Part shown: positions 11,084 to 41,893 of the stretch, in pieces
Position numbering within the stretch: the first letter of the stretch is position 1
How the letters are laid out: every line of letters starts with the position of its first letter
Origin: Psammoneis japonica
Lineage: Eukaryota
Direction of reading: 5' to 3'
Assembly: GCA_008632985.1 (NCBI GenBank)
Contig: QPGO01000085.1
Span: forward strand, 310,001 to 351,893
DNA: 41,893 nucleotides
Notes under the pieces: model-generated
The model's input: the letters and a program-made list of their open reading frames with translations, nothing else
Database searches by the model: none
Told to the model about the DNA's origin: nothing
Program-made: the position numbers and the translations under genes

Positions 11084-12129
11084 TGTTAGGTTCTGGTAAT
11101 GTCAATCGATATAATCTCCATCCATTGCGACAGTTCCAAGCCGAAGCACAAAGCAAATGCACTGCTTATCACATGCTGCAAACGAAATCTCATGTGTCAG
11201 CAAAAATGATGTATCATGTTGTTCTGGATTCGTGGCTTAGCCCGTTCAATGGAGATTCAAATCTGAAATCATATAAGAAAATTATGGTTTTATATACGAA
11301 GAAGTCTCCTAATAAATCCTTCCCTGCGAGCGAGCTGTCCCGCGCTGTGCTGCCTGACTTGGAAGCACTGTCACCATGATGTGTTCTCTGCCTGATGCGA
11401 AGAGCATGTCTCCGACTGGTGCCCCATCTGTTCCTTCAAGGTGTCTCCAAAAGCTGTGCAAAGATTTAGACGCCATGCCACCACTGTCAGATCTTCTTTT
11501 GGCTGCCTGGGGCAATGGCTCTGCACAATGAACAAGTTTGCCTGCTGGGAAATGAGCATCATCTCCTGCCCCATTGTTGCACGCCAAGTTGCCAATGCTC
11601 AAGGGGAAATCAGGGTTGGAAGCTGGAAACACATCTCTTCTGTTGGCATTTCTCATGCCCCTTTCTCAAATGTTTCACCTGTCATCTCTCTCAAATCAGC
11701 AGCTGCGCACGTGCCAGAGGGAGAAGAAAGAGGAGTGTGGCTGTGGGGCACTTCCGCCGCACATTGACCGCATTTGGCCCAAGTGGTTGGATCTTTGGGA
11801 TTGTCACAATTGGTCAGCTGAAGTGATTTGGAAGCCAAAATTGGAGCAGCACATGAATGTCAACTGAAGCAATGCCTCTGGGTGACAAATGGCCCGTGCT
11901 TCAGGTTGTGCTGAAGACTTCCACTTTTGAGAAACTGTGCTTGTGAGACTGCTTTTGCACAGTCATTGGCCAGCAAGCTGCAAGCTGGTTTTTAAGGACA
12001 AAACAGAGTGGGCTGCTCAGAGCTCTGCACAAGCAACAATGAAAAAAAAGAACAGCCCCTGGGCTGGCTGGCTGGCAGCAGCGCGCATGGCACTTGGGTT
12101 GTTGTTGTTGCAAAGAGAGCCACATGATG

Positions 12130-12309
12130 TTTTGCTTGTGAGAGACAAAGGTGGTGCATGACTGTAAAGACAAGGAGGTCATTTTTGTTAAAACCTTGCA
12201 TGAGGGATGGTTGCACAACCCCTGCTCCAGGAGAATGTGGTTTTTTTCCCAAAATGACCGTGCCGCTTCTCACATCTTGCTGTGTCTTCCCCATTTGCCC
12301 ACCAAGGGG
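12130..12309. repeat. ~180-bp dispersed repeat, inverted copy at 37562-37746
   Basis: ttttgcttgtgagagacaaagg...ccatttgcccaccaagggg matches the reverse complement of 37562-37746 with about three substitutions, a 6-nt indel and a 1-nt T-run difference. Confidence 0.92.
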
Positions 12310-13996
12310 CACGTGGCAGTCCTTGGTGGAGCATGAAGTGGCTCCATCATGAGAGTGCTGCTGCATGTGCCAGTGTGTTTGAGAGAGAAGGAAGGTGTTG
12401 TGGCACTGTGGTTGAAGCTCTGTGTTGCAGCTGGGAGGTGGGATGGTGGTGCCAGAACTCGTGACGTGGCAGCATCATCAGCCACAAGTGCTGGAATGAC
12501 ATGCCACCCCATGCTGCTTCAAAAGAGCAGTGGTCCAAGATGCAACAGGAGCCCTCTGGGAGGACCAGAAGGCCAAGCTTGAAATGTGTGGTCAAAGAGA
12601 GGTGCTCTGCTCTGCAGCACAATGCGATGCGCATGTGGGTGATTTCGACGAGGCAAAAATTCAAAATTCTGAGCATTTGAGAAGAACACACAACAACCCA
12701 AGCAAAAACAGTGCAAAAGCATTGCATTGTTCACTCCCTCTTCACATTGCCCTTGCCTTGCAAATCACTGTTTGGTCTGCAAATGATGATGTTGACATTG
12801 ACTTTGCCAAGACACTTCTTGATTTTGCTCCTTGTGGCTGACATGATGGCATTGCGCACTGCGGAGCTTTTGAGCACCAAAGTGCATGGGCAGCTGAGCT
12901 CATCATGGATCTTGTGATGTTTGAGAGATGACTGGTCCACCCTTCTTGCACTGATGGGCATGCTGTGTGGAGAACTTGCCGTTGCAACCATCACAAGCCT
13001 TGGGTGAGTTGGGGGGGCATTTTTTGCCACAGCTCCGTTGAGTGCAGACAGGTGCGTTGAAAGCCAAGCACCAGGTTTGGCACTGCGCCACACTGTGCCA
13101 GCTTCAACATCAGGCACCAGAGTGCAGAGGATAGATTTCAGTGCATCTTCATGCTTTTTGCCTTTCCTTTTGGCAACTGCTGCTTTTGCCTCTTGTGTGC
13201 CATGTCCTTGTGAGCTGCTGTGTTAAATTGCACGCAGCTGTGGAGTGAGTCAATCACCTGAGAGCACATGAGAGTGCTTGCATCAAAGTTCTGCTTTGCT
13301 GACTCCACTGGACTTTGGATGGAAAGTCTTGCAAATTTGATTGGTGGGGTGGCAAGGGCTGGTCTTGGGTTGTTGTCTGCCAGAGTCTTGCCCAAAAGTG
13401 CCAGCGGGAGTTGGTGTTTGATCTCTTCTTAGTCACCACAGTCATTTGCTGCATGTTGAACATGCTGCCACTCATGTTGCAAAGACTTCTGTGGACCTGC
13501 ATGGGCTGTCTGTGGGTGGTGAACCACCATCTTGGCAAGTCCCTGAACAACCAAGGTGTCCACTTTTTGGTCTTCTCCACTGTCCATTTGTCAAAGGCTT
13601 TCCTTTCTCCTGTGAAACCTCCCAGACAACAGCTTCCAGCTTTGGTGGTGAAGCCAAGGTCTCCAAAATAATTCTCAACATTCTCCAGGCTGTGTGCTGG
13701 CACTGCTGGGATGTTCTTGGAGTTGCCAGCAGGGCAGCATCCGTGCTTGGGTTTGTTGGCTTGCAGAGTCAAGAAGAAATTTCACAGGAGGTGAAATTTC
13801 CCTGCTGCTGCAGAGTCGTTGGCATGCCAAGGAGTGAAGGTGTTGGGGAAAAGCTCTTTCATCTCTTGGATCAGTGGGAGAAGTCTCAATCTGTGCACAA
13901 CCACACCTGGTGGATTGCCCTGCATGATGCCTTTGCTCCTTGCTGTGAAGGAGAGCAAAGGTGCTGAGGTTCCTGCAGATGATCTTAACCAAGCAC

Positions 13997-16408
13997 CACC
14001 CCTGTGGTGGGGGAGAATGTGGTGATGTCATGGTCACGTGGCAGTTCATGTCTTGTTCATCACATTTTTGTGCAAATGTTCTTACATTTGTTTGTGCATT
14101 TGCACACAAATGCCAACAGTGGCAGGAAAAATCCTGAACCACATTCTCCCCTGAAACTCTGACCACCAAAAACCGAGGGCACGGAAGCGCACTTTTGGCA
14201 GCTCTTTTCTCCACACAAAAAACACGCGTTTTGACAACTCGACCATGATGATGCCTCATGGTTCTTCCCCATTGCCTTCCCAGGATGCCAATCCCACTGA
14301 CGCCGTTGCTGACAACGCTGATGCAACAGGCAATGTCATTGTTCCGGTTCTCATGGGTGTGACGCATGCAAAATGAGATGCTGCAAACTCACACTGTTGT
14401 TTGCACACTCCACAGCCTCCCACAGACACTGTCACGAATTCCAAAGCTGCACCTGCGTTTCGGGCCCCCAGCATGCCCGACACTGTTTCTCCTGCCCTCA
14501 CTGCTGCAGGTGCTGTTGATGCTGTCATTGTCTTTTGCCAATGACGTCCACAATGAAATGCCAATGACTCACACTTCTTTCATTCTCACCCCACCGCCTC
14601 CCACAGACACCATCATGAATTCCCAAGCCGCGCCTGCGTTTCAGGCCCCTGGCATGCCCGACACTGTTGCTCCTGCCCTCACTGCTGCAGGTGCTGTTGA
14701 CACTGTTGTTGTCTTTTGCCAATGACGTCCACAATGAAGTGCCAATGACTCACACTTCTTTCATTCTCACCCCACCGCCTCTCACAGATGCTGTCACGAA
14801 TTCCAATGCCGCACCTGCATTTCAGCCCCCTGGCATGCACGACACTGTTGCTCCCACCCTCACTGCCTCAGGTGCTGTTGACACTGTTGTTGTCTTTTGC
14901 CAATGACGTCCACAATGAAGTGCTCATAACTCACACTTCTTTCATTCTCACCCCGCCGCCTCCCACAGACACTGTCACGAATTCCAACGCCGTGCCTGCG
15001 CTTCGCCCCCCTGGCATGCCCGACGCTGTTAATCCCACCCGTGCTGCCACAGGCACAGTTGACACTGTTGTTGTTTTTGCTTTGGAAGGAGCACGATGGA
15101 CAACGGCAGACCAGGAAACCCACGCAGCCATGGCCTGCTGATGGACGACACATCAATGGACATGAACAGTGCCTCTTGGTTGGCTCTCGAGTGCAGTCCA
15201 ATCTTTAGAATGCACAGACACATCATGCAGCTCTCTGTAAATTAGAAACCTGACAACAATTGGATGGCAGGCATGCTTTCACAGTTTTTTAGTTTCAAGT
15301 TGGAGAGGTCAGCGAGTTGGTGTTTGTTTGCTGGCAACTTGGCAAGGTTTCAAGTGGTGCATGTGACTTGGACACTGCTCTGTTTTCCAGGACTGGGTCA
15401 TTGTGTGCAATTCCACAAGAGGCCACTCTCGCCGTTTGAATTCTGCGTGTGATGTGCAACATGCTGTTTTTGTAAGTTGCTAAAATGGAGGCAGGTGACA
15501 ACGTGCTTTTGGCAAATGCTCACTGTGTTTGTCACCATTGGACCTTCAAAACTGCTGCCATGTCAACAGCTGTGCTGCCACTTTGCATGCCGGCACCTTC
15601 TCTGCCCGCATTCCATCAGCTGCATCCTCCTTCACATGTTGCTGCGGTTCATCTTGACACCTGTTGTTGGCTCCGATTGGTTCCGCTGGGCTCTGGGTGA
15701 GTCTCAATCACCTCCAGACAGAGGAGGTTCTGCTTGGGAACAACCATCCTGAAAAAAGTCATCACTGTGCCTCCTGTCATAGATGCTCCTCTGCCACACC
15801 CACGCCCACACAAGGAGTGTTGACCAGTGCATCAGTGCTTGTTGATCCCATGCCTTTGTTGTTCCAAGCAAAGTCGCCTTGCTCTGCCACCACCAGGCCC
15901 ACTTGCATCCACAGCAGTTGGAGCACGAGCAGGATTGTTTCGCTTGTTGTTTCATTGTGCTTGATTGCAGCACTCAATGACAAATGGCAGCAATGTCGTC
16001 CACGGTCAATTTTGGATCCAATGAAAATGGGCCCAAACTTCAGGATCACAAATCTGCTGTGTTTGGGTTACAACAGCAGGTTTGACGGCACCGGCCAACA
16101 CAGGAGAGACTGCCATGTCAGGAACGGCAGGCGGGCACATGTCAGGTGGTGTGGGGGGTGAAGAACGAGAGGTCATCATGGTCGAGTTGTCGAAATGTGT
16201 GATGTTTTGGTGTGTGCGCTGTCTTCCAAAAAGTGCACTTCCGCACCCTCGGTTTTTGGTGGTTGGAGTTTTAGGGGAGCTGTGGAACAGGAATTTTCAC
16301 TTGTGGAACACACACACACATGTGGATGTCAACATTGAAACTCAACGCACGGTGAAGCCGTGCGCATGCAACCACGAACACACACACAGCTCCCCTGCCA
16401 CAGGGGTG
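13997..16408. mobile_element. Mutator-like (9-bp TSD) non-autonomous DNA transposon
   Basis: TSD accaagcac at 13988-13996 and 16409-16417. 19-bp TIR cacccctgtgg(tg/ca)ggggag. Subterminal inverted homology ~14130-14250 vs ~16174-16297. The RT sequence (..WPSGAW) resumes across it. Confidence 0.88.
14357..15080 (+). repeat. Tandem array of four ~181-bp units inside the Mutator-like element
   Basis: ccaatgacgtccacaatgaa recurs at 14538, 14719 and 14900 (period 181); a more diverged first unit starts at ~14357. Confidence 0.9.
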
Positions 16409-18144
16409 ACCAAGCACCAGAAGGCCATTTGTGCCCAACAGTGAAAAGCATGAGTGTCCTGTTCTTCTCATTGAAGCCATTGGAGGCATCAATGAAAAGG
16501 AATCCACAGTCATCCTCAAATTTGTGTTGTTCCCAGAGCAGGTTCATTGTGTGAACCCCACCTTCAATGCCTGCTTCCAAACCAGCACACAGCTGATCAG
16601 CTCTGCAAGCCTCTTTAGCTTGAGCTCCAGAAACCAGGAGAATGGCTTTGGCCATGGAGTGTTGCCACACCTCTCCTGTGCCAACTGGGTGGATGCCCAA
16701 ATTTTTGTCCAGCGAGATGAGTCTCTTTGCCATGAGAGCCTGGCAGGTGGCCCAAGGGGGCAACTCATTTGCCAACCAGTTTGCATGCATGCAATGCTTC
16801 ACAAAGCAATCTGCTGGCCTTCCCATGATGGAGAAGCCACTCCAAAACTGTGCTGGCATTGGATCTGCCAAGTCCTGTGCTCCTTGACAGTCTTTGCATG
16901 ACAGTGTTGACGATGCTGTTGGCGAGGATCACATCTTGGAGTCAAGGCAGTTTGCCACATTTGGGAAATTGGGCTTCTTTCAGGATCCTTGAATCTGGAT
17001 GTTTTGATTTGAGGACTTCTAGAGCTGTGTCCTTTGTCTTCTCATTGACTTCATCTGGTGAGATGGAGCTCCACCTGGTGTTCTCTTTGTTGGCACTGGG
17101 GTTGGCCTTTTCTTTTTCTCTTGTGTTGCCTGCTGTCATTGGGGGGGGGGGGGGGGATTTGAGACAAGCTGACAAATTTTTGGCTGAAGTGGATCTGGTG
17201 AAGCAAGCATGAGAGTTTCATGGTTGGTCATGCAGGTGACATGGGCAAACACGTGTTTGGCAGGCAGACACAGAGGTGCAATTGCAGCACAACCCCTTGC
17301 TCTGTTTCTTCTGTTGCATGATTTTTTTTTAATTTCGCTGTGCTTCACCATGGGAAAAAACATCAAGCCACAAGTCTGTGATGGATGTGGTCCATCCACC
17401 AACTCTTGTTCATTTTACATTTGTTGCACATTGAAGGTCACACATGCACCAAATGTTTGTGGTCGGACCACTTCGGCATGTTTTGGAGAAACATCAACTG
17501 TTGCTGTCATTGTCGTGCTTTGCAGCTGGATCATGGATCATGGTGCATGATGTCCTCATTTTCCCATGCAATCAGGTGCATTTTTGCATTGGGGCATTTG
17601 CAGGGAGTCGCCTCAAATCTGTTGCAAAAGAAATCTTTTGAAAATGACCCATGACATGTGTTGCAAAAATCACTTGAGGATGTCCACAGAATCTGCACAT
17701 TTTTGTGCCAAAACTGTTGTCTTCTCAAAACTTTTGCATGAAAGGACTTTGCTGCTAACTGATCAGGTGCATTTTTGCAAATGTGTTGTTCTAAAATGCA
17801 CCTGATCAGCCAGCAGCAAAATCCATTTTTCGCAGAATTAAAATTCACCGAGGGCAGACCGACAGACTGTTCAACATTTTTCTTGGTGCTGGTCCACACA
17901 ATTTCCATGCATTTTTTTACAGTGACCCTGCGGCACGAAAGATTGCTGTTGAAGTGCGCAGGCGAAAGTCCTTGGTGCGCTTGCGCGTGCATTGCTGGAC
18001 CTCACAAGACAAAGCTGCGTTAAAAAGACATTTCAAATCACAAAACAATGGCAGATGTGCAACCATTGTGCTGCCATGCATTGCCTCAGATAACATCAAC
18101 TTAAACAGGCACACATGTCTGGCTCAAAAATTTCAACGGACGTC

Positions 18145-18300
18145 AAAAAACTGTTGAAGCTGATGGCTTCAACAAAAAATCTGTTGAAACTAAAAATGTT
18201 TTGTTGAAACTGACAGTTTCAACAGTTTTTCTGTTGAAACCAACAGTTTCAACAAAACTCGTTTCAACAAAAAGTGTTGAAACTGTTGGAATGTTGAAAT
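18145..18300. repeat. Array of palindromic gttgaaac-N-gtttcaac modules (left arm)
   Basis: Repeated tgttgaaactgacagtttcaaca / ctgttgaaaccaacagtttcaaca, roughly inverted with respect to 19007-19140. Confidence 0.75.
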
Positions 18301-19006
18301 TGATGTCACGGTTTAGAGATTGATGCTCGCAATTGCCGTGCATTGTGCCAACACCCGCCCAACACGCAAATGATGATGGCGGCCCATGGCGGCATCAAAT
18401 TTCCACTTGATGATGACAAAAATGGCGCCGTTAGAACTGCTGCAGTTTGGTCAGCACAAGCGCGAATCTTCTTGTTGTGTTCAGTTGAACAACCACAGAC
18501 TTGCGAGGTGATTTCAGAAACCTTCAAATGAAAAGTTTCTGCACACTTTTCTTGGGCCATTTTGACCCCCTCACTCTAAGAACAAACCTCATGCAAACAA
18601 TCCCATTGGGTCAGACGCATCAAAATCAGCTCTCACATGATCATTGGTGTGACTCTTGCAGACCCAGTTTGGCTGCCTTGGGCATTGAGTTTGTGTGGCG
18701 CAACATGCAACCGACAGCATTAAAATCCTTTGGATGCAGCAGGTCCATTCAAGCAACAAGCACACAACATCACATGCCAGTTCCTTGGCAAAACATGTCA
18801 TTCACACTTCATGTTGTCGATTGGTGCCAATTCTGCAGTGGTCAAGTCTGAAGAGGTTGCCAAAAACAACCGCTCACCACCATGGCAACTTGCACAAAAC
18901 ACACATCTCATCCGATGCGGAGTTCTGCACGCCACTCAGTGCATGGCATCTTGCATCCACTCATTTCACCTTGAGCGAGTCAATTCGTCGGAAATGCTGA
19001 CGCCAT

Positions 19007-19140
19007 GGTTTCAACAAAAACTGTTGAAACTGTTGGTTTCAAAAAAGAAATTGTTGAAACTGTGTGGTTTCAACAAAAATCTGTTGATTTTGTTGAAACT
19101 GTTAGTTTCAACAACTTTTTTGTTGAAAACATCTTCAGTT
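19007..19140. repeat. Array of palindromic gttgaaac-N-gtttcaac modules (right arm)
   Basis: gtttcaacaaaaactgttgaaactgttggtttc...tgttgaaactgttagtttcaaca; same module as 18145-18300. Confidence 0.75.
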
Positions 19141-22100
19141 TTTTGCGGCATTTGTGACTTTTTGAAATGAATGACCAAAATGACGTTTGCCCATTCATTT
19201 GTCGCAAAAATGTGACTTGTCTGCATGTGAAGGTTGGGCAACAGCCCAAATGTCATTCATTGACTTTAAGAACACACATGTGACAAATGCTGTCAATTTC
19301 AATTGTTTGGGCTTTCCACCCCAGCTCCGTGCTTCACATGCAAAAATTGACCCCTGTTGTCAACCAGACACCCACCTCGATCGACTGACAGTGCACAGAT
19401 GCAAAGTTCATGACACTTTTGGGGGGCTAGAATGGGGGTGAACATCAGTTGCCAGCCAATCACTGAAAATTGTCCCTCGTGCTTTCACGTGCAACAAAGG
19501 TGCTCCATGAAAAGCCAGCTCTGTTTTGAAATGTCAGATGCCATGAACGATGCACACCCATTGCATTCTCACAAGACATTGGTTTGAAGAGCATGAGACT
19601 GACAATGCTCATGTCTTGAGCATTTTGTGGCTCTAGCGGGGGTCAAAGTCCAGCCATGACTTCCAAAAAATTCGAGTCGAGCATGTCACACGGGATTCAA
19701 TGCTCGTGACTCGGAGCATGAATCGACCTTTTCTCAACACCGAGACAGATGACAACATCATCACAAACCAATTTCATGGCAATGTTCTACTTTCTAATTT
19801 GTCTTTGACCTCGTGACAACTGCATTTGACCTCTTTCATGCTGTGGATGGGCCAAGCAATCAATGAAGACTCATCTGGCTGCAAGCCACACTCTGCCACT
19901 TTTCACATTTGACACTTGTGTCTTTGCAATCAATCTAGAGTGGATGCAAGCCAGGGAGGAGCTCCATTCCCTGCTGTTTTTCATTCTGTAGAATGACAGC
20001 GTCAGAGTGATTTTGTCAACATTGCTTGACTCCTTCTTTCTTGAACTGCGCGCCAACTTCATTCTGCATTTTCACTCCCATCCGCCCGACTCTCTCCCAT
20101 TCATGAATGCTTGGCTGGATGCATTGCAGTTGCTTCATCAAAGTCTTGAACGAGATTCGTCTGGTCAACGCCATTGCTCAAATGGGTGTGATGATGTGAC
20201 AATGACATGACGACAACGTTGGATTTGCCGATGTGCTGACAGAACAAGAGTCAGCTGCGGCGGCAAGAAAGTCAAGCGAAGCAACAAGTGGTGAGCCTTG
20301 GACACACTGACAACACCATTTTGATTTTCAACCTGCTTGCCTTTTTACAAACTTGGAGTTTAACTCAGTGGGTGCCAGAAATCTGGCTGGTGGTGGGCGT
20401 GTGAAGAATTGTCATGCGACATGCTGTCATGACAAGCGAAACGGCATGTTTCAAAAAAATCTTGCCGAAATGCTTGTCTCTGACTGGACTTTTACAATGG
20501 TGTGATGCACGGAGTCTGACAGAGCAGACACTGCAAATGTCCATAAAACGATGGTGGTTTAGACACCTGTTGAAGCAATGCAACAAAACAGCTTGAGCAG
20601 CTCAACTTTGCATCATCCGGCAAAAATGCTGTTTGCACACATCATCAGCGATTGCTCTCTGATGCCATGAAACAACCACCATGGCCTGTGCTGAGTCCTT
20701 CTTTCTTGCCTTGGGGCTTTGGCTGCATGATCCGATGCTTGGCCGCTTGGCTGCTGGAGGATGTGGAAAGCTCAAAGACAAACATCAGCATGGAAAACAT
20801 CCATCGGCTCTCATGTTGAAACTGCAAGTTGAGCAAAACAATGTCGTCGGGTTGATTTGAAATTTTCAAAAATTGACTTGAATTGTCAGAGAGGGTTTGA
20901 ATTGCCTCAGCGGCAAAAGTTTGATGTCTCCATTGCCGCACGGTAAAAAAGAAGGTCATTTTTTTACTGCCCAGTTAAAAAAAAATGCTCGAACGGCGTG
21001 CGTTTTGGTGATCCGGTAAAAAGAACTGCTGGCACGTCTGATGTCTGAGCAAAAGTGTGCACGTGCATTGTCACACTGCTCAACAGAAAACAAGGTAAAA
21101 CCAAGCTGCATTTTTCAGATCACTTGTCCATCAATTTTTTTTGTTCGACGCGCCACATGAGATTCATCACATGGCAAAACACACCATGACCACGGCACCC
21201 ATCTGCCATCAGATGGAGCAAACCAGCTGTTTCAGTGTTGGTGTTGCATGATGTGGTGGCACACATGATGATGTGGAGCACTGCTGCAAAGAACGGTGAG
21301 TGAAAAAGCACAGAATGATGCAAGAATGCGTGCCCCCCTGCAATGACCGCACACCGATGCGGTGCAGTTGTGAGAAGCCAAGGGCTCTGCACTCGAGAGA
21401 CTTGTGAATGATTTGTTTGCAATGTTTTTCTTGCTGGGGATGAATGTTTTTAGCAAGAGAACAACACAGACTGAACAGTGTCTGACCAATCATGTGCTCA
21501 GTCAATGAAGAAACCACATGCTGAGTGTGGAGTTGACAATGCACAGAGGTGGTGCACAGGCAACAAAGCAAAAAAGAGCCCATGCATTGTGAGGATGGGA
21601 GCTCATCTGTTGTGACTGGATTGCAAAAGATTGAAGGACTGCCCGCACAAGATCTTTTGCCGCCCATGTTTTCATGTGAACAACAGATCTCACAGAACAC
21701 AACTCACAAGCTGCGCCCACATCCTCTTTTCTGCAATGAACTGGCCCTTCTAGACCAGTCATCCAAAACAGTGTTTTCAGATTGTCCAAGACATTTAGGA
21801 AGGTCTCTTGTTTCAATGGCAGCTTGGGCTGATCATTGCCATGGCTGCTGCTTCTGACCCTGCGGTGTTGAGTGAACCAGGCCTTTTGTCCTTGCAGTCT
21901 CCTTCCAAGCTCCTTTTCCATGTTCAGCTTGGAGCAGGATGGAGGCAGTCCTGCCAACTCACTCACTTTTCTCCAAAGGCCCATTCTCTGTTCTCTGTCA
22001 TTTTTGCTTTGGAAGCACAAGTGACTTCAATTCAAACTCTTGGTGCAGAATGCCAGAGCACCGCAACTGATCCCTTCTTGAGTGACTGAGCAGCAGCAAC

Positions 22101-23046
22101 CTTTGATTTCCTGCCTTTTTCAGAGCAAGGACGACTCTCCCAGCGCAACAACAGCCATGCCAACACACGGAAACACCAGTGCAGAAACGAGCCCCTTCAT
22201 GATGAGCTTGCACTGACAGGGCCCTGGGTGACTTGAAAGAGGGCAGCGGGGATGTTGGGCACCATGCAGAGTGCAGAGCAGCAAATTCTGCCAGACACCA
22301 GTGCAAGAGGGCCAGTGCTGAAATGTTGAGGGCATCCACGGGGCTGACGTGCTCAAAGACACCACTCAAGAGACACTGGAATTTTGAGTGGTTTGCAGCA
22401 AAAGCCATGCACAACTGTGATCAGTGCAGAAAGAGAAAAGAGCACAGTCAACAGCAAACTGGTGAGTTGCCACTTGAGTTTTTGTTCGCTGCACGCACAC
22501 AAAATGCCTTGCACCTTTCCAACTTCTGCAGCCAAAATCAGCTGATTCGCGTCCTTCAGATGTGGACAAACGCACGCATCATCCCACCAACATCTTGGAG
22601 GATTTGTTGCAAACAACATGAAAATTGGCAAAGCCAACCAAAAGGCAGTTGCGCACCTTGGCTCCGATGAACAATTGTTCATGTCTGCAATTCGCTGCAC
22701 ATCGATCTGCTGAGGTCGCTTCTTGAGAGATGAATGAGAAGCTGTCGCTTTTCTGCTGTTTTGAGCTTCCTCCCATCCAAGGCCTTCTTGACTTCTCAAG
22801 GCTCAACACCACCCCATCCAGTGCAGCCGATGAAGTCCAAAGGCCAGAGGGTTGCCACAACGCCAGCATTCATCATCGACATGGCTGCGGCATCTTTTGC
22901 CCACGGCGCTCCATGGTTTCATGGCGGCAATCGGCGGACTGAAATCTTTCAGCCTCAGAGGGAGGTCCCCCAATTAAAAAAATTGATGGGCGGGTGATCT
23001 GAAAAATGCATTTGGTGCACCGTCTGGGTGGACGTGTGCTGGAGTG

Positions 23047-23592: not shown

Positions 23593-23594
<2 letters not shown>

Positions 23595-29922: not shown

Positions 29923-30001
29923 ATTGTAAAAACAAACCATTGGTTCAGCGGTTCAGCACGGCTAACTCGGAAAACAGGACATTTTTACCTAAAGAATGAC
30001 A

Positions 30002-30058
30002 TGACGTCATAGTGAAGATGACGTCACATGCGAAAAAAATGATGTCCTAGTGACGTCA
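30002..30058. promoter_or_regulatory. Cluster of three TGACGTCA palindromes (bZIP/CRE-type motif)
   Basis: TGACGTCA at 30002, 30019 and 30051; further TGACGT in a duplicated cgtgcgtgacgttgcattt at ~30407 and ~30450. Function is inferred only. Confidence 0.35.
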
Positions 30059-30757
30059 TCTTCAATGTCTTATCTCTAAGTAGTGATGTCAAGTATGTCA
30101 CATCGTATATATGATATGACATAACATCATATAATATAATATATGATATGATGTGATATAAGATGACACAGCAGATTACGACATTGTAAACACACCTTTC
30201 TTCTTGTGCCTTTTGGCTTTTCCTTTCACTCGGACATTGAGAGCCTCGGGCAAAAACTCGCCAGACATGACAAACAAGGTCGTAATGAAGTTGTTCCCAA
30301 CCATTGAAGAGTACTCCATGCTACGAAGGAAAAGGTCACAGGAAAGAAGAAGCATCACGTACACCATGAAAAAGAAAGGATCTGGGACGGCTTTGGAGCT
30401 TTGCCGCGTGCGTGACGTTGCATTTCTTGAGAGGGACGGACAGGACAGCCGTGCGTGACGTTGCATTTATTGAGACAGGACAAATTGAGCTTTGGTTCAG
30501 CACTGGTTCAGCAAAAATCAATTGCCCTTTGGATGCTGGTTCAGCAAAAAATGTCTTGGTTCAGCGCTTTATTACTTATGGTTTTTGAATTATTGTAATT
30601 TTTTATTAAATCGCAATCAAAATTACAGCACACGCACAGCCAGCGAGAGCAGGTACAGTAGCAGCGGTCACGATTTAACTTTTTTTGTAAATGTCTTGGT
30701 CCGCCCCGGGCTGTTCCAACAGTTCCAAAACAGGCCTCCGGAGCACCGTAATGCGTA

Positions 30758-30968
30758 ATTGGACAATTGACAGTTGCCGAATTTTTGCTGAGAGGTTTGA
30801 CTTTGGCGGTTCTCATCGATGAGAAGCATCGATGAGCTACTGGGTACAGCATTTAGTAGGCCCCCCTACAGTACAGTAGCTCGACAATTGGACAAATGCC
30901 GATTTTTTGCCGAGAGGTTCTACTTTGGCGGTTCTCATCGATGTCATCGATGAGAAGCATCGATGAGA
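30758..30968. repeat. Local ~80-bp duplication upstream of the Sel1 gene with a perfect 16-bp palindrome TTCTCATCGATGAGAA (30810-30825)
   Basis: aattggacaa...tgccga.tttttgc.gagaggtt..actttggcggttctcatcgatg...agaagcatcgatgag occurs at ~30758-30836 and ~30886-30967. Confidence 0.8.
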
Positions 30969-31003
30969 GCCGCTACCAGACAAGTCAAAAGCAACACGGC
31001 AAC

Positions 31004-33049: not shown

Positions 33050-33944
33050 TGGATCTAGAGTCGAGCACATGCACGTTACGAACTAGAGTGAATAGCCCAA
33101 CTTTTCACTGCTAGCCAGCTCAAGTGGTCGAAAAGGATTTTTTGTCCTTATTCTAAAACCATTCTTCATCATCCTTTTCTCATGTCATGCTCATGTCGAC
33201 ATCGCTACTAGCAAATGACAAGTTATCATCTGACGATGGAACGAACATCATTTGAGTGCAGCGTTTAGCCACTGATTGGCGGCGCAATCCAGATCATACT
33301 GTACGGTGTCATCGAACTGAGTAAATCACGCCATAGTCGCTAAGAAATTGACAAGATACGATAGACCAGGCCTGCGGGGAGCATTGACCACTTGTCTTTC
33401 TTTGTGGGTATGGGTGTGTGCCGTTGCATGCTGTATTGCCTGTACGTACGTAGGGCCCTACCGCCGGGGCCGGTATATATTGTGCGTGGCGGCTGATCTG
33501 AGTGGCGTGGCCACCGCACCGGTGACGCGGATGACCGATATATTTGATGTCTCATGCCATTTTTGGGGCTGTAGCGAGGTGCACGGACACTCTTTTTTTT
33601 CCAATTTATCGCCATAATAGCGCATCGCACAAACTCACTTATTGTTCGATATGTTTTCCCCAATATGACTTTTTCGTGTAGAATTCACGATAAATTATCT
33701 TTGTATATAACTGAATACATTTTTGAACATGCCACGCCGGCAATCCCAATTTTTCAGAACTTTCGAGCTCTCCTGAAAAACCGTGCCACGTACCCGTCGT
33801 AGGGAATTTATCGATTTTTTAGGATGTCCCCACAACCTCTCATGTCCTCAATGATAATTCCAAGAATCCGAAGAATTCATCTGCACTAAACAACCCACAC
33901 CCTTTCAAAATCCAAGGGACACACTTTCAAATTCAGACGGACAA

Positions 33945-34010
33945 CCCGACTGCCCGACCCCCCGACTGCCCGACCCCCCGACTGCCCGACTGCCCGACTG
34001 CCGGACCGAC
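33945..34010. repeat. CpG-rich minisatellite of CCCGACTG/CCCGACC units at the edge of domain II
   Basis: cccgactgcccgaccccccgactgcccgaccccccgactgcccgactgcccgactgccggaccgac. Confidence 0.85.
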
Positions 34011-34389
34011 ACGAAAAAGTCTGCAATCACCAACCACTGAGTGGTCAATGAAAAGTGTTGTCACGGCAATCAACAGGATTCCACTGAGTGGAAATTGTGA
34101 GGGTCACTCCATGCCACCCACCATTTGAGTGACAGTGGTGGTCTTCGCCAAACGGTCCCAACGCTCGTTTCGGTGACAGCATGGCTGGAATTGCTCAGCC
34201 CCCTCGAGCTGACACTGCCACTGCCAATGCTCCAGCTAGAGCAGCCAGTCCAGTCGGGTCAGTTCGACATGGCCTGTGCCTTCCGCATTGCTGCCCTGTT
34301 CCAGGTGAAAATCTAACTTCACATTTCATTCAGGATGGGCAAAACCCCTCCATTTTGGAGGAGAAAATCCTGGCGCCTGTCCATTTTGG

Positions 34390-37300
34390 ATCAGCGCCTG
34401 TTCACCACAGTGCACGGCGAATCAATTGCCAGAGCTTCAGTCCAGGCATCAGCTTTGTCAGCATGTCTGCTGAGAGTTCATGTGTCCATCCTCCCAAGCA
34501 ATCTGCGCAATTCCTGCAGCTTGCACCTCACACATCCGGTGACAAGTGATGGCATTGTGTCTCTTCTCAAGCGTCAACTCTGGCCGTGCTGAGTTCTTGA
34601 ACACAGCCTCATTGTCGCAGAAGACATTGGTTGGCCTCCTTCTTCCCAAATTCCTGGCATTTGAAGCTTGTGACACAAGGCTTCGATCTGCTCTGCCGCA
34701 GTCTTCATCACAACAAATTCTGACCCAAAGGTCAAGAACTCTGCAGCATTCTGCCATTCAGAGTGCCACAAGATTGTTGGTGCCTGTTGCACAAAGATTG
34801 TGGCCCCAGTGCAAGACCTCTGTGTCACACAACAACCAGTGTGATCCATGTCAATGAAACATGTGGCAGCGGCGCTGTTGCCCTGTGTCTTGGGGACATC
34901 CCTCATGACAGCTTTGGCTGCCCTGGGATGGCACTGTGTCCAGCAATGCTTCTGGAAGCATGGTTGGCCAAAAGCAGGCTTGGTGTCATTGAACACCATC
35001 ACAGACTTTGCGCGTGCCTTCAGATGTGCAAAAACATGAAGCTCCTCATCCAAGTGCCCAACTCTTGGTGCTGCCAAGTGCAAGAACATCAAGGACACTG
35101 GGGCTGTGAGATGTTGATCCACCCCAGCTCCAGCTCCAGCACCATCCAACGCAATGCACCAATGAGCCCCTGACAGTGACTTGCCGTGCGGGCATCCAGT
35201 TCAGGGGAACTCTCTGGTTCTGGCCTGTGCCCAGCTGAGCTTGAACTTGACATCAGCAGCTGTCCTCTTGACATGCAAGTCAGCGAACAATGCCCAGCAT
35301 GTGTTGCCATCCAAATCGGATGGTTGGTGCTTGTGGATCTGGGTGCCAAGAAGCTCCTTGGGTTCCTTGACACTGCCATCCTCAAGCATGTGACAAGACA
35401 CCATAAAATCCATGAATGTCTGAGGATCTTGAGAGATGACTGGCAATTTGTCAACACACACAAGTGCACATTCCCAGTGCTTGAAGCCATCAGGCTTGAC
35501 TGCCTTGCACACCCAAACATCAGGGATGCCTTTGAAAGATTGAAAGTTGAAAGATTGAAAGCCCGCTTCATGCAGCATGGCCACCATGTGGTCCTGAAAT
35601 CTGGCGCCTGAGATTTTGAGACCACATGGTTCCTGTGCAATCTTGACAGGTCACCCCTCATTTTGCTTCCCAAATTCCCCAGGCCAGCAGTTGCACAACA
35701 GCATTCCTTGGGTCTTTGCACCCAGATGGGCATTCTGAATGTCAGCGCACACTGTGTCTGGGTCATTCAATGCAGCTGTGGTAAAAGCCATCCTGACACT
35801 GCCGCGCAAGACTGCACTGGAGAGCAGGTTGACTCTTTGGGTGGCTCCATCTGATGACCTTCTGCAACATGTTGGGCTTTCTGGGTCAAATCAGTCTTAA
35901 CATCAAATGCCATGAGATCAAAATTGAAGGTGTTTGTTGCGCTAAACTGCACAGAAAATCAGCCTCTCACGCAATGGATTTCTCCTCACCTGGGGCTGAA
36001 CAGGCCAAGTTTGCCCCCCCCCCCCATCCCTGTCCTTCTTGTTGCCTGACTTGAGAGCAGCACTGCATCCATGAGCTCCAAGCAGTTTTGCATTGCCTCG
36101 GTGTTTAAGTCATCCTCAGCAAGGGCCACTCATCCTTGCAAATGATGGGTCTTCCCAACTCAGGTGGGATTGTGAATGCCATGTTGTCTGTGCAGTTTTC
36201 TGTGGCACTTGACCAGTGTCCAATGCACAGTCAAAGAGGGCATGTGCTGAGACGCCAGGCATCAAACCCGTTGTGTCCTCTTCTGGGACCCCGCCATCCA
36301 TTTCTGGATGTTTGGAGGCAGTCAGCCTCCTCACTGCTGTGACCCACTGGGCACAGTGGGACCAACAACGCTTCGGCACATGTGTTGCCTCATCGCCACT
36401 CTAACTTTCCATTTGAGTTCTCAAGCAGAGGCTTTGGCTAAATTCTGTCATGGACTGCAGGGCACAGTTGCACCCTGCTTGACCCCACATTCTTTGCAAA
36501 TCTCCTTGGTCTGGCCATCAGTTGGCTCGGGTGTGATGTTGGACACAATCTCAAGGGGAACACCAGCATCATGGATGAATGACATCATTGCCTCCGGATG
36601 CTTTCCCTCTGAGTCCCAAGGGTGGAAGTGGTCACAGCCTCTCCTGCCATTGATGATTGAGCCGCCAATGTCCCCATGAATTGATTTGACCTTTGAAAAC
36701 ATTTGGTCCATGTAAAACCTGTCCTTTGCACTGGCGAATTTGAGCCAAGGGGCCTTCTTCCACACCTTCCTCTTGGATGGCACACAGATGTTCCTGACTC
36801 CGGCTTGAGTCATTGCCCCAAGCACATTCTTTGTGGCAGTGAGACCAACGCCCCAATGCCTGGAAGACATCTTGGGTGTGAGAGTGGATTTGCTTTCAGA
36901 GGCAGACAGTGCAAGTGTCCGTGCACACTCCTCGTGATCTTTGTGCACATCTGCTTGGCACTCATCATGCAGACCATCCCCTTTCATGTTGAGATGGGAA
37001 ATGGTCACATTGGCTGCCGTGTGCTTGCACAATGTAGAGTCCTCACCAACAGTTGAGATCTCCTCAGGGTGGTTGAACCCATCATTGATTGGCCAAATGG
37101 CAGAAATGCAACGTGCTTCATTTGAACCCCTGTGGTCCTCTTGTGGGCTGTGCCCCAATGATTGAGACAAGCTGATGGCCATGTTGAGCTTCGACTCAAT
37201 TGCACCCTCATTCTTGGCAAACTCACCAGACAATGGCTCGTGGTTCCCTGGGCATTGTGGATGTAAGTTCAAGACGTGGCAGTTCCTCCAAGTCTTTGTT

Positions 37301-39717
37301 GTCGGCAGGTTTGCATGTCTCATGGGTGGAGACAATTCAGCTCAGTCAGAGCAGAGTCCAGACCTTCAAGTCCAGGAATGAGATTGAGTGTGAGCTTGTC
37401 TCATTGGGCTGCTTCAGCACATTGCCTGCAGTTGAGCCATTGGCTCTCAGTTGATTGGGGCACATCAGCAAGTTTTTCACTTGGTCCCTGAAACACATGG
37501 CCTCACGCAGTGTTGGCAAACAAGGTTGGCCTGTTGAGGGATCTGTCCAGGTGGTGGCAACCCCCTTGGTGGGCAAATGGGGAAGACACAGCAAGATGTG
37601 AGAAGCTGCACGGTCATTTTGGGAAAAAATCACATTCTCCTGGAGCAGCTGACTGGGTTGTGCAACCATCCCTCATGCAAGGTTTTAACAAAAATGACCT
37701 CCTTGTCTTTACAGTCATGCAACACCTTTGTCTCTCACAAGCAAAAGTGATTTTTTCGATGTTTTGTGTCATTTTACGGCACACTTGTTGAGCGATCCGT
37801 CCAACAACTTTTGACATTTAACGTCGAGTGGTAAGAGGCATAATTGTACCACAAACTTGGCCGTTTATTTGATGTTGAAGATAAATGTGTCCATTGATTA
37901 AATTCTCGTACTGCGGAGCTCGCACGTAGAATTCTACGGGCCCAATGTCACACGGAGTCCCACCTGGGGCTGGAACGCGTCAACCAACTGCATGGGGATG
38001 TTGTGAACCAGTTCACACTCGCCGGAGTGCAGGTGCACTGACATGGTGTGAGTGGGGTTAAAAAATGATGGGATGCAACTTGACCCAGCAACACAAGTGT
38101 CAGCATGTGAGTCAAGCTGGTTGAGGAAAATTCCGTCAGAAGACTCAGCGTTGGCTGAGAATGTGGTGCGCTGAGCTGCACATGCAAAGCAAATGGACAC
38201 AAAATTGGCAGGAGCAGTGCCAACAGCAACACCACATGGGTTGGTCAAACAAGGGCTGTTGTCATCAATGGGTGACATGTGACTCTGCAAGAGTCCTCTT
38301 GCTTGCAGGTGCAGCCAATCATTCTCGATTGGGTTTCTCCTTTGAGGGTTCACACTTGATTGCATCCTGAGCCAAAGGCTTGGGCTTGTGAACCACCCTT
38401 CTGAACTGCATGCCAGCATCTGCTCCACCAGCAGCCTCAGCCCCTGCTTCCTCAGGCACAGGCTTGGCATCAGGCTCATTGGATTCAATGGGTTTGGGAG
38501 GGTCACTCAAGACCTTGCTGACCTTCCTGGTGGCAGCATCCTCTTCGGCATCAACAGCCATGGCTTTGCACTTGCGCTCAGGCCTTCTCCCTCTTCTTCT
38601 TCTTGCAGCGTTCCTTGACTTTGGCATGTTCCTCTGGCTCCAGAGCCAGCCATTTGTCCTTCGGATGGTGTCCGGCCCTGATCCTGGGCTTGTCCTGCTT
38701 CTGCTTGCATGGGTTCCCCCCTTCTTCTTGGGATCACGTTCGTTCCAAACCAAGCCAACAGTGTGCTGCTGCTCTGAGCAATTCTTGGCATTCTCAACCG
38801 GAGTCTTCATGTGCTGCTGGCAGAGCTTGAAGCCAGAGAGCTTGGCATCGTCACCACATGACACTCTCACCACAGCTTCCAGTTGGGGGTCAGTGACCCC
38901 CTTCAAGAAGTCAGAGACCTTCTTGGTTTTAGCCACTGGCTCTCCTGGGTCAAGGAGGTCATCATGAGCCTGGGCCCTCTGGCAGCACTGGATGCACTGG
39001 TTGAATGTGCAGTGACTGCGTCCAGCGCACTTTGCTGTCTGAGCATGTGTGCAATTCTTCCAAGTGGCAGTGGCAGCCCAGCTTTCAGCCTGCCTCTTCA
39101 GTGCCAAAAAGCACTGCACACCCATTCCAGGTGTGATTGTGGGGTTTGACAAAGGCCCACCATCTGGGTCCTTCAATGATTGGCTCCTTTTGAGCCCATT
39201 GCACACATGCTTGTCATCCGTCATGTGCGCCTGTTTGGCATGCCACATCATTGCAATCAAGTCCTCACTGAGTTGTGCGGTGGTGCCAGAGCTCCATCTG
39301 GAACAGCTCCTCCTGCTTGACAAAGTCGTGCATCTGGGTGAGAGGAGCACCCTTGGGGGTGTCATTTTCCAACTCCTGCTTGTGGATGTTGTCCAATTCA
39401 GCAAGGTGGTTGGCCCACATTGCAATGACATTGCCAGCGAAATCCTGGGCTTGCGGCACTTCACCCCTGACAGTGTGGCAGTCCAACCAAGCGCAGAGAG
39501 CCTTGAACTTCCTGACAGCAAGACACAGGAAGTTGACAGCATTGTCATCTGAAGTGTCCTTCTGGAGTCCCTCAATCATGTTGTTGACCTCAGCAAATGG
39601 CACTTGGCAGAAATCATCAACAATGGCAGCAAAACCTTGAGCATTGATGCAGCTGCAGGCACCTGCCACGAAGCCTGTCCTGTTCATGCAGGTGGTGAAA
39701 GCAATGGCATCAGCCAT
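34390..39717 (-). mobile_element. Degenerate Ty1/copia LTR retrotransposon (diatom CoDi-like): gag-protease-integrase-RT-RNase H
   Basis: Gag from 39717 (..GEPVA.TKKVSDFLKG.TDP.L); protease LDSHADTCVAG; CPNQLRANG; integrase WG.GL....TQAGVR..D.MFSKVKS.HG...FIHD.GVP...TVP.SPWQN; RT AHLWVQ, KSQAP/GARF.DH, PDVW, HWECALVCVDK (YWEYVLVYVDD); RNase H FIDMDHTG...RSCTG, TFGSEFV.MK, TNVFCDNEAV, KRHNAI. Integrase lies before RT, the copia order. LTRs not identified. Confidence 0.9.
37562..37985. mobile_element. ~420-bp insertion within the copia protease region
   Basis: Copia reading ..HNIPM(Q) / VATTWTDP is interrupted. Imperfect inverted ends ccccttggtggg / cccacctgggg. The left 185 bp match 12130-12309. 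Confidence 0.7.
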
Positions 39718-40199
39718 GGTTGTGAATGATGTGTCCTCTCATGAAGGTGCAGTGGTGTCACAAGTGTGGTGTTTTGTAAAAAAGTGAGAGGAAATGAGTG
39801 ATTTTGTGGTCATGAACAGCTCAATGCAAGAGTGCCGACCAACAGAAATGCATGACGGCAAACAACAACCGCATGACAAAGATCCTCATGTTTGCATGCC
39901 CCACGTGCATCTCAGTGCATGTGTGCTGATGCACACAACAAGTCATTTCCAATGACTGAATTTCCATTGTGCTGCTTGGGTCCAACAAGCGATCACATTG
40001 TGGCAAACATTGCGATTGCGCAAGCAACCATGGACACATGGCGCTCACCGCAAAATTGATGAAAATGGCACCTGAACCATTGCCCGTTCCAGGCTCCAGA
40101 ACAAAGAGAGACATCATTGGCTCTGATTGAGCAAATCACATGCAGTTGCTGAGAAATTGACAAGACATGATAGAAAAGTTTTGCTGTGGCAATCAAGAA

Positions 40200-40950
40200 C
40201 AGGATTCTAGAAATTGTGAGGGTTGCCCTGTGCCACCCACTGTTTGAGCAACAGTGGTGGTCTTTGCCAAATGACCCCAATGCTTGTTTCAGTGACAGCA
40301 TGGCTGGAGTTGCTCAGAATGCTTTGCAAAATCTGATTTGCCCAAGACAAGGGCAGACAAAGGAATCGATTTCAAGTTGGCATCAGGCAGCTCCTCGTGC
40401 GGCAGCCTGTGGCTTGCAGTGGACTTTGCGGAGTCGAACCTTGGCAGGTGATCAACAAATCTGAGCACTCCAGCAGTCCAACAGACCTGCAATGTCTTCA
40501 TGTTCAGTTGTCCATTCAGCTCTTCCCCATTGTGCAGTTTCTGGAGTGTGGGGTTTTGGTCCGACAAATTGTGAGAATGCAGGTTTTCACTGCTTGCTGT
40601 CAACAAGTGTCAGCAAAACCCCCTTTTGCCGGCTGGACCAAAAATGATCCAGTGGTGGTCCCAAATCTTGTCACAAATCAAAATCTTGATCATCTTCATG
40701 CCGGGCCAGCATGCATGAAAATGCATGAGTGGTGGTGCAAAAACCTTTCCTCTGGATTTGACAAATCTGCTCCTGTTGGGTCAAGGGGGTGCCCAGAGCG
40801 CTTGTCCACCAACACTTCATCAAGTGCGTTGATCACCACATGGACTTCAGGAACATCATGGGACAACAGTGACAAGTTCTCAATGATGTGAGTGTGAAGC
40901 TGTTCAACTTCATTCACGTTGGACTTGAGTTGAGTGACAATCAGCTGCTG
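40200..40950 (-). mobile_element. Possible second, more decayed non-LTR (CRE-like) N-terminal fragment
   Basis: Weak motif resemblance only (ALDEV..D...G..LD, R.FVTR, CILT, WTAG..RFVD, HEELP). Confidence 0.25.
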
Positions 40951-41242
40951 AGTCAGGTTTCCCTGATTTGAAGCATCGCTCAGCCTGCGGCAGTCTAAAA
41001 CCAGAGCAGGGGCACAAACACAAGGACAAGATGTTGGTGTTTCTCCTCATTGTTGGGGAGCCATTGTGTGTGCTGTCTGCAACAAGATGCTGGATTTCAT
41101 CTTCCTGCAGAGCAACGTTGACGTTCTCCAATGATGGCATTCCCGGTGTGTCCTGGAACAAAGCCAGCTCATGATTGGCTTGGTTGAGCTGCTGCTGGCC
41201 AGCAAGGATCTCAAGCAACTCAAGAAGACAAAGCTGGAAAAT

Positions 41243-41377
41243 TGGGTGTCACCACTTGCAGCAAGAATTGGATCAGGCTGGAGGTGGCAGGGACAGACAA
41301 AAGTGCAAAACATGCGCGGAAATTGCCACACAGAGACAGACCGCCGCTGAGATTCTTGCTGCAAGTGGCGACACCCA
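41243..41377. mobile_element. ~135-bp MITE with a 26-bp TIR
   Basis: tgggtgtcaccacttgcagcaagaat (41243-41268) vs attcttgctgcaagtggcgacaccca (41352-41377); one mismatch (CA vs CG). Confidence 0.8.
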
Positions 41378-41524
41378 AAATCCAAGTTGGCAGTGGTTTG
41401 GTGGGTGTTTGGAGCAAGTTGTTGCCGGCACTTTTGTTTGCCAGCCAATGTGCAAAGTTGTCTGGCAGTGGTCGACAATGTGGGAGTCCTTTTTTCTCCA
41501 CACACCAGACACTGGATTGGCTCA

Positions 41525-41893
41525 TGTCTGGGTGCCTTGACCAATCATTTGCCAGAATTTGACCTGACTGAAGACCAGTTTCACAAAATCAAGGTTCTTG
41601 ACAGCCAGGGCTTCAACTCCTGCATCAAGCATGTCAACAGAGACAACAATGCAAGAGAAATTGAAGTCAGTCAGCATCTTGTCAACCCACTCTGTTTGGC
41701 TGTCAATCACCTTGGTGAGTCCACAACACTGCAAGATGGGGCAGAGTTGACTGAAGCTCTGGCAGATTTTCAATGTGTGGTCATGACTGACAGCAAGATG
41801 ATCATCTTGCCAGGCAGTGTCCCAGCTGTGTCCTCAATGGAAATGCCATCCATGAACTCACGCATGACAATGGCATCATTTGTGCCTGTGTTG
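41525..41893 (-). pseudogene. hsdR: Decayed fragment of a bacterial-type type I restriction enzyme R subunit (HsdR, EcoAI/EcoEI-like SF2 helicase C-domain)
   Basis: Minus strand with one frameshift: NTGTNDAIV.REFMDG...DTAGTLPGK.II/.AVSHDH.LKI.QSF.QLCP......KVIDSQ......LTDF....VSVDMLDAGV....VKNL.F.K.VFSQVKFWQMIGQGT. This matches recalled HsdR motifs IV (GKTIIFA...HA), V (ISVDMLDTGIDVP..NLVF.K.V.S) and VI (KFWQMIGRGTR). Confidence 0.8.

Follow-up and report, generated by a model that had tools for sequence, protein, structure and literature searches.

Why is the dinucleotide TpA nearly absent from two long blocks of a Psammoneis japonica contig, while the genes lying beside them contain it at ordinary levels? 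The DNA analysed here (the window) is a stretch of 41,893 nt, positions 310,001 to 351,893 of the forward strand of contig QPGO01000085.1 (assembly GCA_008632985.1), numbered from its first base. An original prediction, made by reading the sequence, had proposed that TpA in these blocks is converted to TpG and CpA by a second process beyond the decay of CpG, and had described that process as repeat-restricted and as resembling repeat-induced point mutation (RIP). The blocks contain several kinds of repeat, among them two elements with long terminal repeats (LTRs), here called element A (block 1) and element B (block 2). The comparisons reported below demonstrate a DNA-level process, acting after integration, on both strands and in a context-dependent manner, that changes TpA to TpG or CpA in mobile-element DNA beside CpG decay.

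Dinucleotide composition and borders of the blocks

TpA and CpG observed/expected ratios (o/e) were profiled in sliding 1-kb intervals along the whole window, and dinucleotide counts were symmetrised, pooling both strands, for the comparison of blocks with flanks. TpA o/e was 0.06 in the blocks (11.4-29.9 kb and 34.05-41.9 kb) versus 0.56 in the flanks, with 106 TA among 26,232 block positions and 590 among 15,239 flank positions (odds ratio 0.10, p=3e-153). Single 1-kb intervals gave values of 0.00-0.14 between 11.5 and 29.9 kb, and of 0.02-0.10 from 34.0 kb to the end, except for 0.22-0.23 in the two that contain an unmutated island. Over the host genes (1-11.3 kb and 30-33.9 kb) they gave 0.4-0.75, and the TA frequency of the flanks is normally 3.6-4.7%. 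The near-absence of TpA, the abundance of TpG and CpA and the normal composition of neighbouring genes were thus as originally described. A TA-free stretch that had been seen by eye at about 38935-39770 was also found, with zero TA between 38930 and 39777.

CpG was reduced as well, with 564 CG in the blocks versus 851 in the flanks (p=1e-73; o/e 0.36 versus 0.99) and an o/e that ranged from 0.1 to 0.7 along block 1. The o/e of TG plus CA was 1.75 in the blocks versus 1.17 in the flanks. Expressed as frequencies, the loss of TA (0.0347) and the loss of CG (0.0343) sum to 0.069, and the gain of TG plus CA is 0.073. All dinucleotides other than the pyrimidine-purine (YpR) steps had block values within about 14% of the flank values, and GC content was 0.487 in the blocks versus 0.476 in the flanks.

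These values bear on one mechanism that the original prediction had listed as a candidate, namely error-prone repair synthesis of the Pol eta type (WA>WG, where W is A or T) drawn to methylated or damaged heterochromatin. The errors of Pol eta include A>G at an A preceded by T or A, and the loss of TpA does coincide with the territory of CpG decay. However, a WA signature should also remove AA, and the block/flank ratios of o/e were 1.06 for ApA/TpT and 0.92 for ApT. The 27-fold range between flanking contexts described below is not a known feature of Pol eta either, and we consider this mechanism very improbable. Gene conversion among repeats with a bias towards GC was rejected on similar grounds, ApT and ApA being undepleted. 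Selection against TA or against stop codons was rejected because the elements are dead and frameshifted.

Stop triplets counted in the six frames of block 1 comprised 948 TGA, 82 TAA and 39 TAG. With TGA nearly the sole remaining stop, long spurious open reading frames (ORFs) are common, and they abound in every frame of 11400-29917 and 34050-41893.

The borders of the blocks are sharp, lying within about 100 bp of element ends. On the left of block 1, TA is dense through 11313 and thereafter occurs only at 11467. The right border, 29917, is the last base of an LTR-like repeat, and dense TA resumes at 29927. The start of block 2, at about 34020-34050, coincides with that of another LTR-like repeat. 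Within the window, loss of TpA is restricted to mobile-element DNA, and host genes are normal. The left border of block 2 falls exactly at a CpG-rich minisatellite (33930-34010; units like CCCGACTG), whose CpGs have been kept.

Identification of element B

The gag-like ORF of 418 aa in block 2 had 183 homologues in an exhaustive phmmer search (E<=1e-3), 49 of them at E<=1e-10. The homologues measure about 450-500 aa and carry no Pfam domain, and the family of 183 has no Pfam model. A metagenome scan with an alignment of these homologues yielded 79 loci, and in the long ones the gag-like ORF is followed by a single in-frame stop and then by a pol ORF of about 1400 aa. Of six long ORFs scanned from the relatives' loci, five contained PF07727 (RVT_2), and all five were pol ORFs. 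A profile built from 11 intact metagenomic pol ORFs matched the minus strand of the window collinearly, from 38122 down to 34405, and the gag match was also collinear. Because of these collinear gag and pol matches, the direct repeats (Table 1) and the presence of RVT_2 in the pol ORFs of relatives, element B is evidently a degenerate LTR retrotransposon of the Ty1/copia type. No target-site duplication could be assigned to it.

The pol profile found nothing in element A or elsewhere in block 1; unrelated sequences therefore share the depletion of TpA. As to the types of element listed in the original prediction, the copia-type element was thus confirmed with a lineage-specific profile, and the labels non-LTR, gypsy, DNA transposon and HsdR remain unverified, Pfam having returned nothing for them.

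In five of the relatives (L009:332-6076, L043:406-5961, L016:1449-7019, L006:2-5425 and L011:142-6018) the gag-like sequence and the pol sequence of about 1400 aa share one frame. This arrangement, split by one stop, suggests expression by stop read-through in this copia-like lineage.

Direction of the change

The gag-like ORF contained no Tyr in 418 aa, the mean of 60 homologues being 3.0%, and its Cys content was 4.3% versus 0.7% in the 60 homologues compared. In a set of 150 gag-like homologues none had less than 0.7% Tyr (median 2.8%). When the gag and pol profile alignments were taken together, the 42 consensus Tyr positions were found to be occupied by His (17), Cys (15), Tyr (1) and other residues (9). 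Phe, whose codons are without TpA, was kept at 28 of 41 consensus positions. CpG transitions turn Arg into Gln, His, Cys or Trp, and one of these stands at 33 of 88 consensus Arg positions. Tyr codons are TAY (Y, pyrimidine), and replacement of Tyr by His and Cys therefore corresponds to TA>CA and TA>TG on the coding strand. Since the two outcomes are about equal, both DNA strands were affected. Together with the mass balance of dinucleotides, the 32 changes among 42 Tyr positions support the predicted second process beyond CpG decay, and its predicted action on both strands accords with the counts of His and Cys within a single element.

All 79 metagenomic loci with relatives had TpA o/e of 0.44-0.93, and several had CpG o/e of 0.2-0.6; one of the two peptide patterns used in the metagenome search includes Tyr/Phe, so that heavily mutated copies could escape it. 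Judged from these relatives, the family of element B is evidently not natively TA-poor. Metagenomic copies such as L056, L049, L073, L027 and L072, among others, have CpG o/e of 0.2-0.5 with normal TpA (0.6-0.7), that is, CpG decay without the TpA process.

The sequence of the window was compared with Logan contigs of one sequencing run (X1), which is possibly the assembly's own data rather than an independent isolate. The contigs matched the mutated blocks with 0 differences at a depth of 26-37, and the host gene between the blocks had a depth of 28.7 (2857 nt). Examples are a contig of 6576 nt over 37957-41893, one of 1146 nt over 34344-35489 and one of 1712 nt over 35881-37591 (one gap). 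Because the contigs are identical to the mutated sequence at single-copy depth, consensus or polishing error is excluded as the source of the TpA depletion.

The view that no mutation process is involved, the sequence being either natively TA-poor or an artefact of assembly or polishing, is favoured only by the possible identity of the run with the assembly's data. Against it stand the 32 of 42 consensus Tyr positions now His or Cys, the normal TpA of relatives, the identity of the Logan contigs at single-copy depth, and the adjacent genes, which are normal within the same contigs. Its probability is close to nil.

Change after insertion

The two LTRs of one element are identical at integration. 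Between the LTRs of pair A there are now 34 transitions and 5 transversions, and between those of pair B 22 and 1. Over the 463 aligned columns of the two pairs, 14 of 221 sites outside YpR steps differ. The pooled YpR columns consisted of 12 TG/CA doubles, 4 with TA versus TG/CA, 1 TA/TA, 17 with CG versus TG/CA, 7 CG/CG and 65 with shared TG or CA. From the CG counts among these we estimated a per-copy CpG retention of about 0.45, with about 5 doubles expected to be of CpG origin. The remaining doubles, about 7, point to some 14 ancestral TA that each LTR lost independently; adding the 5 still visible gives about 19 TA, or 4.0% of columns. Shared TG/CA made up 14% of the LTR columns, which is the normal level, the blocks having 22%. 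As the ancestral TA content of 4.0% matches that of the flanks and the shared TG/CA is normal, the LTRs evidently inserted with ordinary TA content and lost TA within the chromosome. A rough estimate of per-copy TA retention is 0.16, versus 3.2% per-copy change at non-YpR sites. TA would then be lost roughly tens of times faster than background sites change and about twice as fast as CpG.

These results also bear on A-to-I editing of transposon double-stranded RNA by an ADAR-type enzyme, fixed by reverse transcription and reinsertion. In its favour, element B is known to be a retrotransposon, and a preference of ADARs for a 5' U is stated by Mettrop et al. (bioRxiv 10.64898/2026.01.13.699255, 2026). 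Editing of this kind is nevertheless at odds with the divergence of the LTRs within each element at TA and CG steps after insertion, and with T>C changes on the coding strand (His, 17) being as frequent as A>G (Cys, 15). The depletion is just as strong in a non-coding tandem array and in other unrelated sequences, and it ends at the LTR end yet spans neighbouring unrelated elements. The change after insertion and the sharp borders therefore agree with the original prediction, which had thought RNA editing and reverse-transcriptase error unlikely as sources, and we regard the ADAR route as even less probable than repair by Pol eta.

Element A was also compared with related contigs. At no fewer than 10 of the 40 sites listed, out of 128 variant sites in total, most contigs keep CG where the window copy has TG/CA. 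Among the same 40 sites there were three TG/CA doubles, and none restores TA. Both LTRs of element A (23259-23272 and 29823-29836) keep a patch, TCGATCGTAY, that has two CpG and one TpA in the RTAY context (R, purine), the most depleted of all; it may be a locally protected site.

Dependence on flanking bases

The density of TA in the blocks relative to the flanks was 0.013 for RTAY, 0.082 for RTAR, 0.068 for YTAY and 0.351 for YTAR. YTAR accounted for 62 of the 106 residual TA in the blocks versus 102 of 589 in the flanks (p=2e-17). The mixed classes, taken logarithmically, lie midway between RTAY and YTAR, as if the half-sites act independently with an effect of about 4-fold each. CpG survival was flat across the same four context classes (0.35-0.46), compared with the 27-fold range for TA. 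Because only the loss of TA depends on context, the two decays are different processes.

Two tests of the strand that carries the context preference were made. Product tetranucleotides favour 5'-TAY-3', with YTGY gaining 13.8 per kb versus 6.0 for YCAY, and RCAR gaining 10.9 versus 5.9 for RTGR. In the 32 Tyr codons, by contrast, the outcome was independent of the preceding base (Cys, 9 after R and 6 after Y; His, 11 after R and 6 after Y; p=1.0). As the two tests disagree, only a dependence on the duplex tetranucleotide is claimed. A strand-specific 5'-TAY-3' motif was considered and is not claimed, product counts and Tyr-codon outcomes being in conflict.

TpA is self-complementary, so that the sequence does not distinguish T>C from A>G, and the lesion could in principle lie on thymine. 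An enzyme of the TET/JBP type would then modify T at TpA in silenced DNA, to 5-hydroxymethyluracil (5hmU) or a derivative, which mispairs with G and yields T>C. In dinoflagellate DNA, T is preferentially replaced at TpA. Recognition of double-stranded DNA by such an enzyme would agree with two observations, that the effect of the duplex tetranucleotide is symmetric and that Tyr codons show no strand bias. On the other hand, 5hmU pairs well with A, and a high yield of T>C is not expected from it. The authors of the preprint on Bigelowiella natans discussed below prefer adenine deamination, also without proof (bioRxiv 10.64898/2026.01.13.699255). A thymine lesion is in our judgement unlikely, though it is the strongest of the competing explanations.

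Spared pieces and copy number

An unmutated island within the pol remnant of element B (Table 1) has 11 TA and 15 CG in 244 nt. Its depth was 84,460 in its bin versus about 30 for single copy, and contigs contain a joint from 37938 back to 37752. The island is a unit of a tandem satellite of about 190 nt and of very high summed depth; the satellite contigs compared were at least 90% like the unmutated version. Two further stretches, at about 29.9-30.4 kb and 32.9-34.0 kb, hold non-coding repeat copies with a contig depth of 3,000-10,000 and normal TpA here. At no fewer than six of the sites listed for these repeats, the window copy has TA versus TG/CA in most related contigs. Since a high-depth satellite unit and a high-depth repeat copy (about 33.4-33.9 kb) are both unmutated, copy number alone is probably not the trigger of TpA loss, copy numbers being derived from summed contig depth only. 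The term repeat-restricted, and with it the likeness to RIP that had been proposed, is not supported in that form. The spared pieces could be simply younger, or they could be actively exempt.

The pol profile showed the island to be part of an insertion that also includes a 186-nt piece, which matches 12130-12309 in inverted orientation at about 98% identity. No mutated counterpart of the island was found when sought beside this second copy of the piece in block 1, homology stopping sharply at both ends. The two copies of the piece (12130-12309 and 37562-37746) differ by 3 mismatches and 7 gap positions, and both are TA-poor with the same TTAA and TTAC sites. As both are depleted and share identical residual sites, the piece was evidently copied after its TA depletion.

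Other features of the window

The repeat structure of the blocks was derived by self-comparison (Table 1). At E<=0.001, Pfam gave no match in 122 of the 126 block ORFs of at least 90 aa; the remaining four overlap a run of N (23631-23757) and were left out. Among the 20 longest block ORFs scanned at E<=5, none scored above a family cut-off, and the best match, CxC6 (E=0.012), was below its own. Frames read through stops likewise gave nothing in 11320-23630 (six frames) and in 23757-29619 and 34197-38398 (minus strand). The Pfam null in the blocks is weak evidence of absence, as the genuine RVT_2 domain of element B was likewise missed. A word-based homologue search with the reverse transcriptase (RT) ORF at 35092-35766 (minus strand) had no match, and the window contained no tRNA and no Rfam family. 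A (GT)n microsatellite at 23600-23757 abuts the 127-N assembly gap inside element A.

Table 1. Coordinates of the blocks, elements and unmutated regions in the window
Feature	Position	Strand	Remarks
Unmutated host genes	1-11313		Ankyrin, two paralogous unknowns, Rubisco-LSMT-like SET protein, AAA_16 protein
Hypermutated block 1	11400-29917		At least three unrelated sequence types: 181-nt tandem array, foldback or terminal inverted repeat (TIR)-like repeats, LTR element A
Tandem array	14369-15080	+	181-nt unit, about 4 copies; TpA-free; copies differ chiefly at YpR steps
Foldback/TIR-like repeats	17.7-19.1 kb		From self-comparison
Element A, left LTR-like repeat	23043-23353	+	85% identical to 29616-29917
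Element A, right LTR-like repeat	29616-29917	+	Last base is the right border of block 1
Unmutated spacer	29960-33887		729-aa Sel1-like ORF at 30860-33049 and high-depth non-coding repeat copies
Hypermutated block 2	34050-41893		Extends to the end of the window
Element B, Ty1/copia-like LTR retrotransposon	34050-40317	-	Degenerate, frameshifted; LTR-like repeats plus gag/pol profile matches
Element B, LTR-like repeats	34050-34198 and 40173-40317		Direct repeats, 78% identity
Element B, pol remnant	34405-38122	-	Several frames; profile positions 32-1379, independent E-value (iE) down to 4.8e-49
Unmutated island in element B pol	37747-37990		Normal TpA and CpG
Element B, gag-like gene	38301-39768	-	Family hidden Markov model (HMM), iE 1.6e-41 and 5.3e-26; includes the 418-aa ORF at 38322-39575 (P0026)

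Among the host genes, an ORF of 461 aa aligns to homologues over 89-97% of its length, and further ORFs of 729, 300, 270 and 234 aa are uninterrupted. Homologue searches with two host proteins gave no named relatives, with best identities of 43% and 46%. Over 665 nt of DNA the two neighbouring paralogous ORFs (2534-3346, 270 aa, and 4042-4944, 300 aa, both on the minus strand) share 67% identity; they belong to no Pfam family.

Discussion

We consider it highly probable that the blocks are nests of silenced elements shaped in situ by two separate mutation processes confined to element DNA, and that the TpA process is of the kind reported in B. natans. The more unusual of the two converts TpA to TpG or CpA (A>G on either strand, equivalently T>C) and has run nearly to saturation. 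It strikes both strands equally, removing RTAY most completely and YTAR least. The ordinary process would be CpG>TpG/CpA decay as expected from cytosine methylation, without such dependence on context. The TpA process is probably enzymatic and directed by the silenced state, whether through methylation, histone marks or small RNA. We tentatively suggest that the lesion could be a deaminated adenine, made by a TadA/ADAT2-like or another deaminase, although this part of the interpretation has somewhat less than an even chance of being right. It is plausible that the process serves genome defence.

Several points weigh against this interpretation. The composition of the flanks served as a proxy for that of the ancestral elements. 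The counts behind the LTR estimate are small, and CpG decay is taken in it as homogeneous. Elsewhere in the genome there are numerous short contigs with 90-99% similarity to element A, and part of that element's depletion may have been inherited from source copies that were already mutated. Some of the residual TA may be new, produced by ordinary CA/TG>TA transitions, rather than resistant. The two strand tests disagree, and the sequencing runs compared may be the assembly's own.

The original prediction knew of no described system with such a signature. In the literature searched, one does carry the same change of TpA to TpG/CpA, and it is the only one: a preprint on B. natans (Mettrop et al., bioRxiv 10.64898/2026.01.13.699255, 2026). 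In mutation-accumulation lines, 231 of 302 new nuclear substitutions were reported in two integrated viral regions, and 230 of the 231 were A>G or T>C, reportedly all on TpA. The rate given is about 6e-7 per site per generation, in some lines only, with the mutation rate raised about 1000-fold. The preprint also describes 124 clusters of windows poor in TpA and rich in CpA and TpG, in which RT and DDE domains are over-represented. Its main target is reportedly single-copy, and an ADAT2-like DNA adenine deaminase is proposed, without proof (bioRxiv 10.64898/2026.01.13.699255).

As in those lines, TpA has here become TpG or CpA on both strands, only foreign or mobile DNA that has integrated is affected, and the genes beside it are normal. 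The two cases differ in that an end state is seen here, whereas new mutations were measured there on integrated DNA of a virophage and of nucleocytoplasmic large DNA viruses (NCLDV). The targets here are retrotransposons and other repeats with an o/e of 0.06; for B. natans the preprint gives a Rho of 0.45 for the NCLDV region and an undepleted virophage region. The host genes of the window are long uninterrupted ORFs, whereas B. natans averages 8 introns per gene (PMC13746701). Strong CpG decay and dependence on flanking bases were found here, and the main text of the preprint contains neither the term 'CpG' nor the term 'trinucleotide'.

The loss of CpG itself resembles decay driven by 5-methylcytosine, with a CpG o/e of 0.36, 33 of 88 Arg positions replaced and related copies that keep CG. 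Such decay cannot remove TpA, relatives show it with normal TpA, and its context is flat in contrast to the 27-fold range for TA. Fungal RIP changes C>T mostly at CpA, creates TpA and is triggered by duplication. The blocks share with it transition hypermutation within the genome that disables mobile elements, sharp limits at the element and a preference for a dinucleotide. Unlike in RIP, TpA is destroyed here (o/e 0.06), with a GC content of 0.487 versus 0.476; and a satellite unit of very high depth and another repeat copy were spared here (copy number being taken from summed contig depth only), which may be a difference from the duplication trigger of RIP.

The natural target of TadA and ADAT2-ADAT3, A34, always follows U33, that is, it lies in a T-A step. 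These enzymes and the base editors derived from TadA convert A to I, which reads as G, the change seen here. They act on RNA or single strands, however, and no candidate gene lies within the window. APOBEC3 and ADAR resemble the TpA process in being deaminase-type editors directed against mobile or viral nucleic acids that leave clustered transitions. They differ in acting on replication intermediates or RNA, on one strand and before integration, whereas both strands are affected here after insertion.

The TpA signature was thus already known from B. natans. What is new is its near-saturation on ordinary retrotransposons, the evidence from LTR pairs that the change followed integration, its coincidence with CpG decay from which it can nevertheless be separated, the flanking-base rule, and borders sharp to within about 100 bp. 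The rule that RTAY is lost far more than YTAR is a requirement that any candidate enzyme must reproduce. The depleted blocks also defeat Pfam-based annotation of transposons, as with the genuine RVT_2 that was missed, because Tyr, Arg and many Ile, Leu and Val codons have been rewritten and TGA is the only common stop left; they are a trap for gene annotation too.

To our knowledge, no natural mutator that targets A:T>G:C changes to chromosomal DNA had been described before the 2026 preprint, which covers one organism and establishes no mechanism. A more specific proposal, which we consider less likely than not, is that the host possesses a system, directed by chromatin or small RNA, that edits A:T into G:C at duplex RTAY sites of mobile DNA after its integration, precise to 100 bp or better and beside cytosine methylation, in at least two distant protist lineages. 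If this were true, the system would be an adenine counterpart of RIP and APOBEC, with a natural enzyme that edits adenine in double-stranded DNA. Should an enzyme be responsible, it would be a natural adenine editor of DNA, relevant both to the biology of genome defence and to base-editing technology.

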